Assembly (NCBI GenBank): GCA_910589185.1
Contig: CAJUSU010000001.1
Coordinates: forward strand, 1,191 to 65,190
DNA: 64,000 nucleotides
Reading direction: 5' to 3'
Origin: an uncultured Clostridia bacterium
GTDB lineage: Bacteria > Bacillota > Clostridia > TANB77 > CAG-508
The letters are not shown here. The text below continues a report on this DNA, generated by a model with database tools.

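Follow-up and report, generated by a model that had tools for sequence, protein, structure and literature searches.

Neighbours of the XDoc-ended giant genes

Giant genes that end in an XDoc (X-module-dockerin dyad) are repeatedly adjoined, directly downstream, by a gene encoding a secreted CAP/SCP-domain protein, and the products from the window and five further loci are 50-64% identical. The N-terminus of this protein resembles MKISKR...SIS[LVI]A|T, and the gene in the window has a perfect sigma-70 consensus promoter. The CAP/SCP-domain protein is a possible partner or regulator.

On the other side of the giant gene, the place of a small membrane protein gene between it and the stalk gene, which appears to encode the cohesin-like socket, is conserved (L005, L065). 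A search for family matches to the window's protein returned none that was significant; a weak SpoIIIAH-like match (E 0.0027) covers the TM and linker region only, and is probably compositional.

Just upstream of the stalk gene sits a gene for a Cadherin-like protein with its own terminal X-module and dockerin-like segment; in L059 this ORF precedes the giant gene by about 10 kb and falls outside the window. The first loop of the dockerin-like segment is canonical. In the window's species the second loop is degenerate, and in L065 it is near-canonical. This protein is a potential second client of the socket to which the giant protein would bind.

Coordinates of features in the window and in comparison loci
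Feature	Locus and position	Strand	Remarks
Membrane protein	window 4895-5380	+	161 aa; TM, Q/N-rich linker, ~65-aa C-terminal domain
Sigma-70 promoter	window 39093-39121		
CAP/SCP-domain protein	window 39349-39891	+	~180 aa
CAP/SCP-domain counterparts	L003 11636-12193; L005 11241-11852; L022 11246-11806; L062 10891-11349; L064 1065-1604		
Cadherin-like protein	L059 1-520; L065 967-2322; L067 upstream ORF		~420-450 aa
ALK/LTK-type cassette genes	L001 12128-21452; L010 3079-12292; L012 2881-12094; L004 1306-9360		
Inserted orthologue	L066 5114-15751		3,545 aa
Adhesin-like proteins	L025 10936-20521		
Split HD_5 (HD-GYP-like) domain	window 58663-59214; 59186-59602	-	overlapping ORFs

Genomic setting and split ORFs

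The rplKAJL-rpoBC region is usually compact; one relative (GCA_947631915.1) carries an orthologue as an insertion within it, between rplL and rpoB. The giant gene in the window, too, lies just upstream of rpoBC. Downstream of the giant gene of L025, which ends in XDoc without M23, two large DUF11/thioester-domain/bMG10 adhesin-like proteins are encoded, and loci of this kind look like islands of surface-protein genes.

In a conspecific assembly (GCA_948628035.1; L058, L060), the giant gene is broken into 1,091 and 9,379 aa and rpoB into 463 and 764 aa; assembly errors or strain-level frameshifts could account for these splits. Since HD_5 profile positions 5-112 and 113-163 are divided between two overlapping ORFs of the window, a frameshift or pseudogene is suggested by the sequence.

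Other cassette and XDoc architectures

The cassette also occurs in a second class of proteins (~2,650-2,690 aa), whose members carry an ALK/LTK glycine-rich domain, Cadherin-like domains (about 17), XDoc and M23; their genes often stand in tandem, directly after an RCC1-type cassette gene. Proteins P0180 (7,226 aa) and P0182 (6,814 aa) represent a variant with an internal XDoc, separated by about 600 aa of GLUG-type repeats from a C-terminal M23 that is without most of the DPxTDPNP insertion. P0198 (1,207 aa), from another lineage, bears a signal peptide and consists of seven tandem X-module-dockerin-like units.
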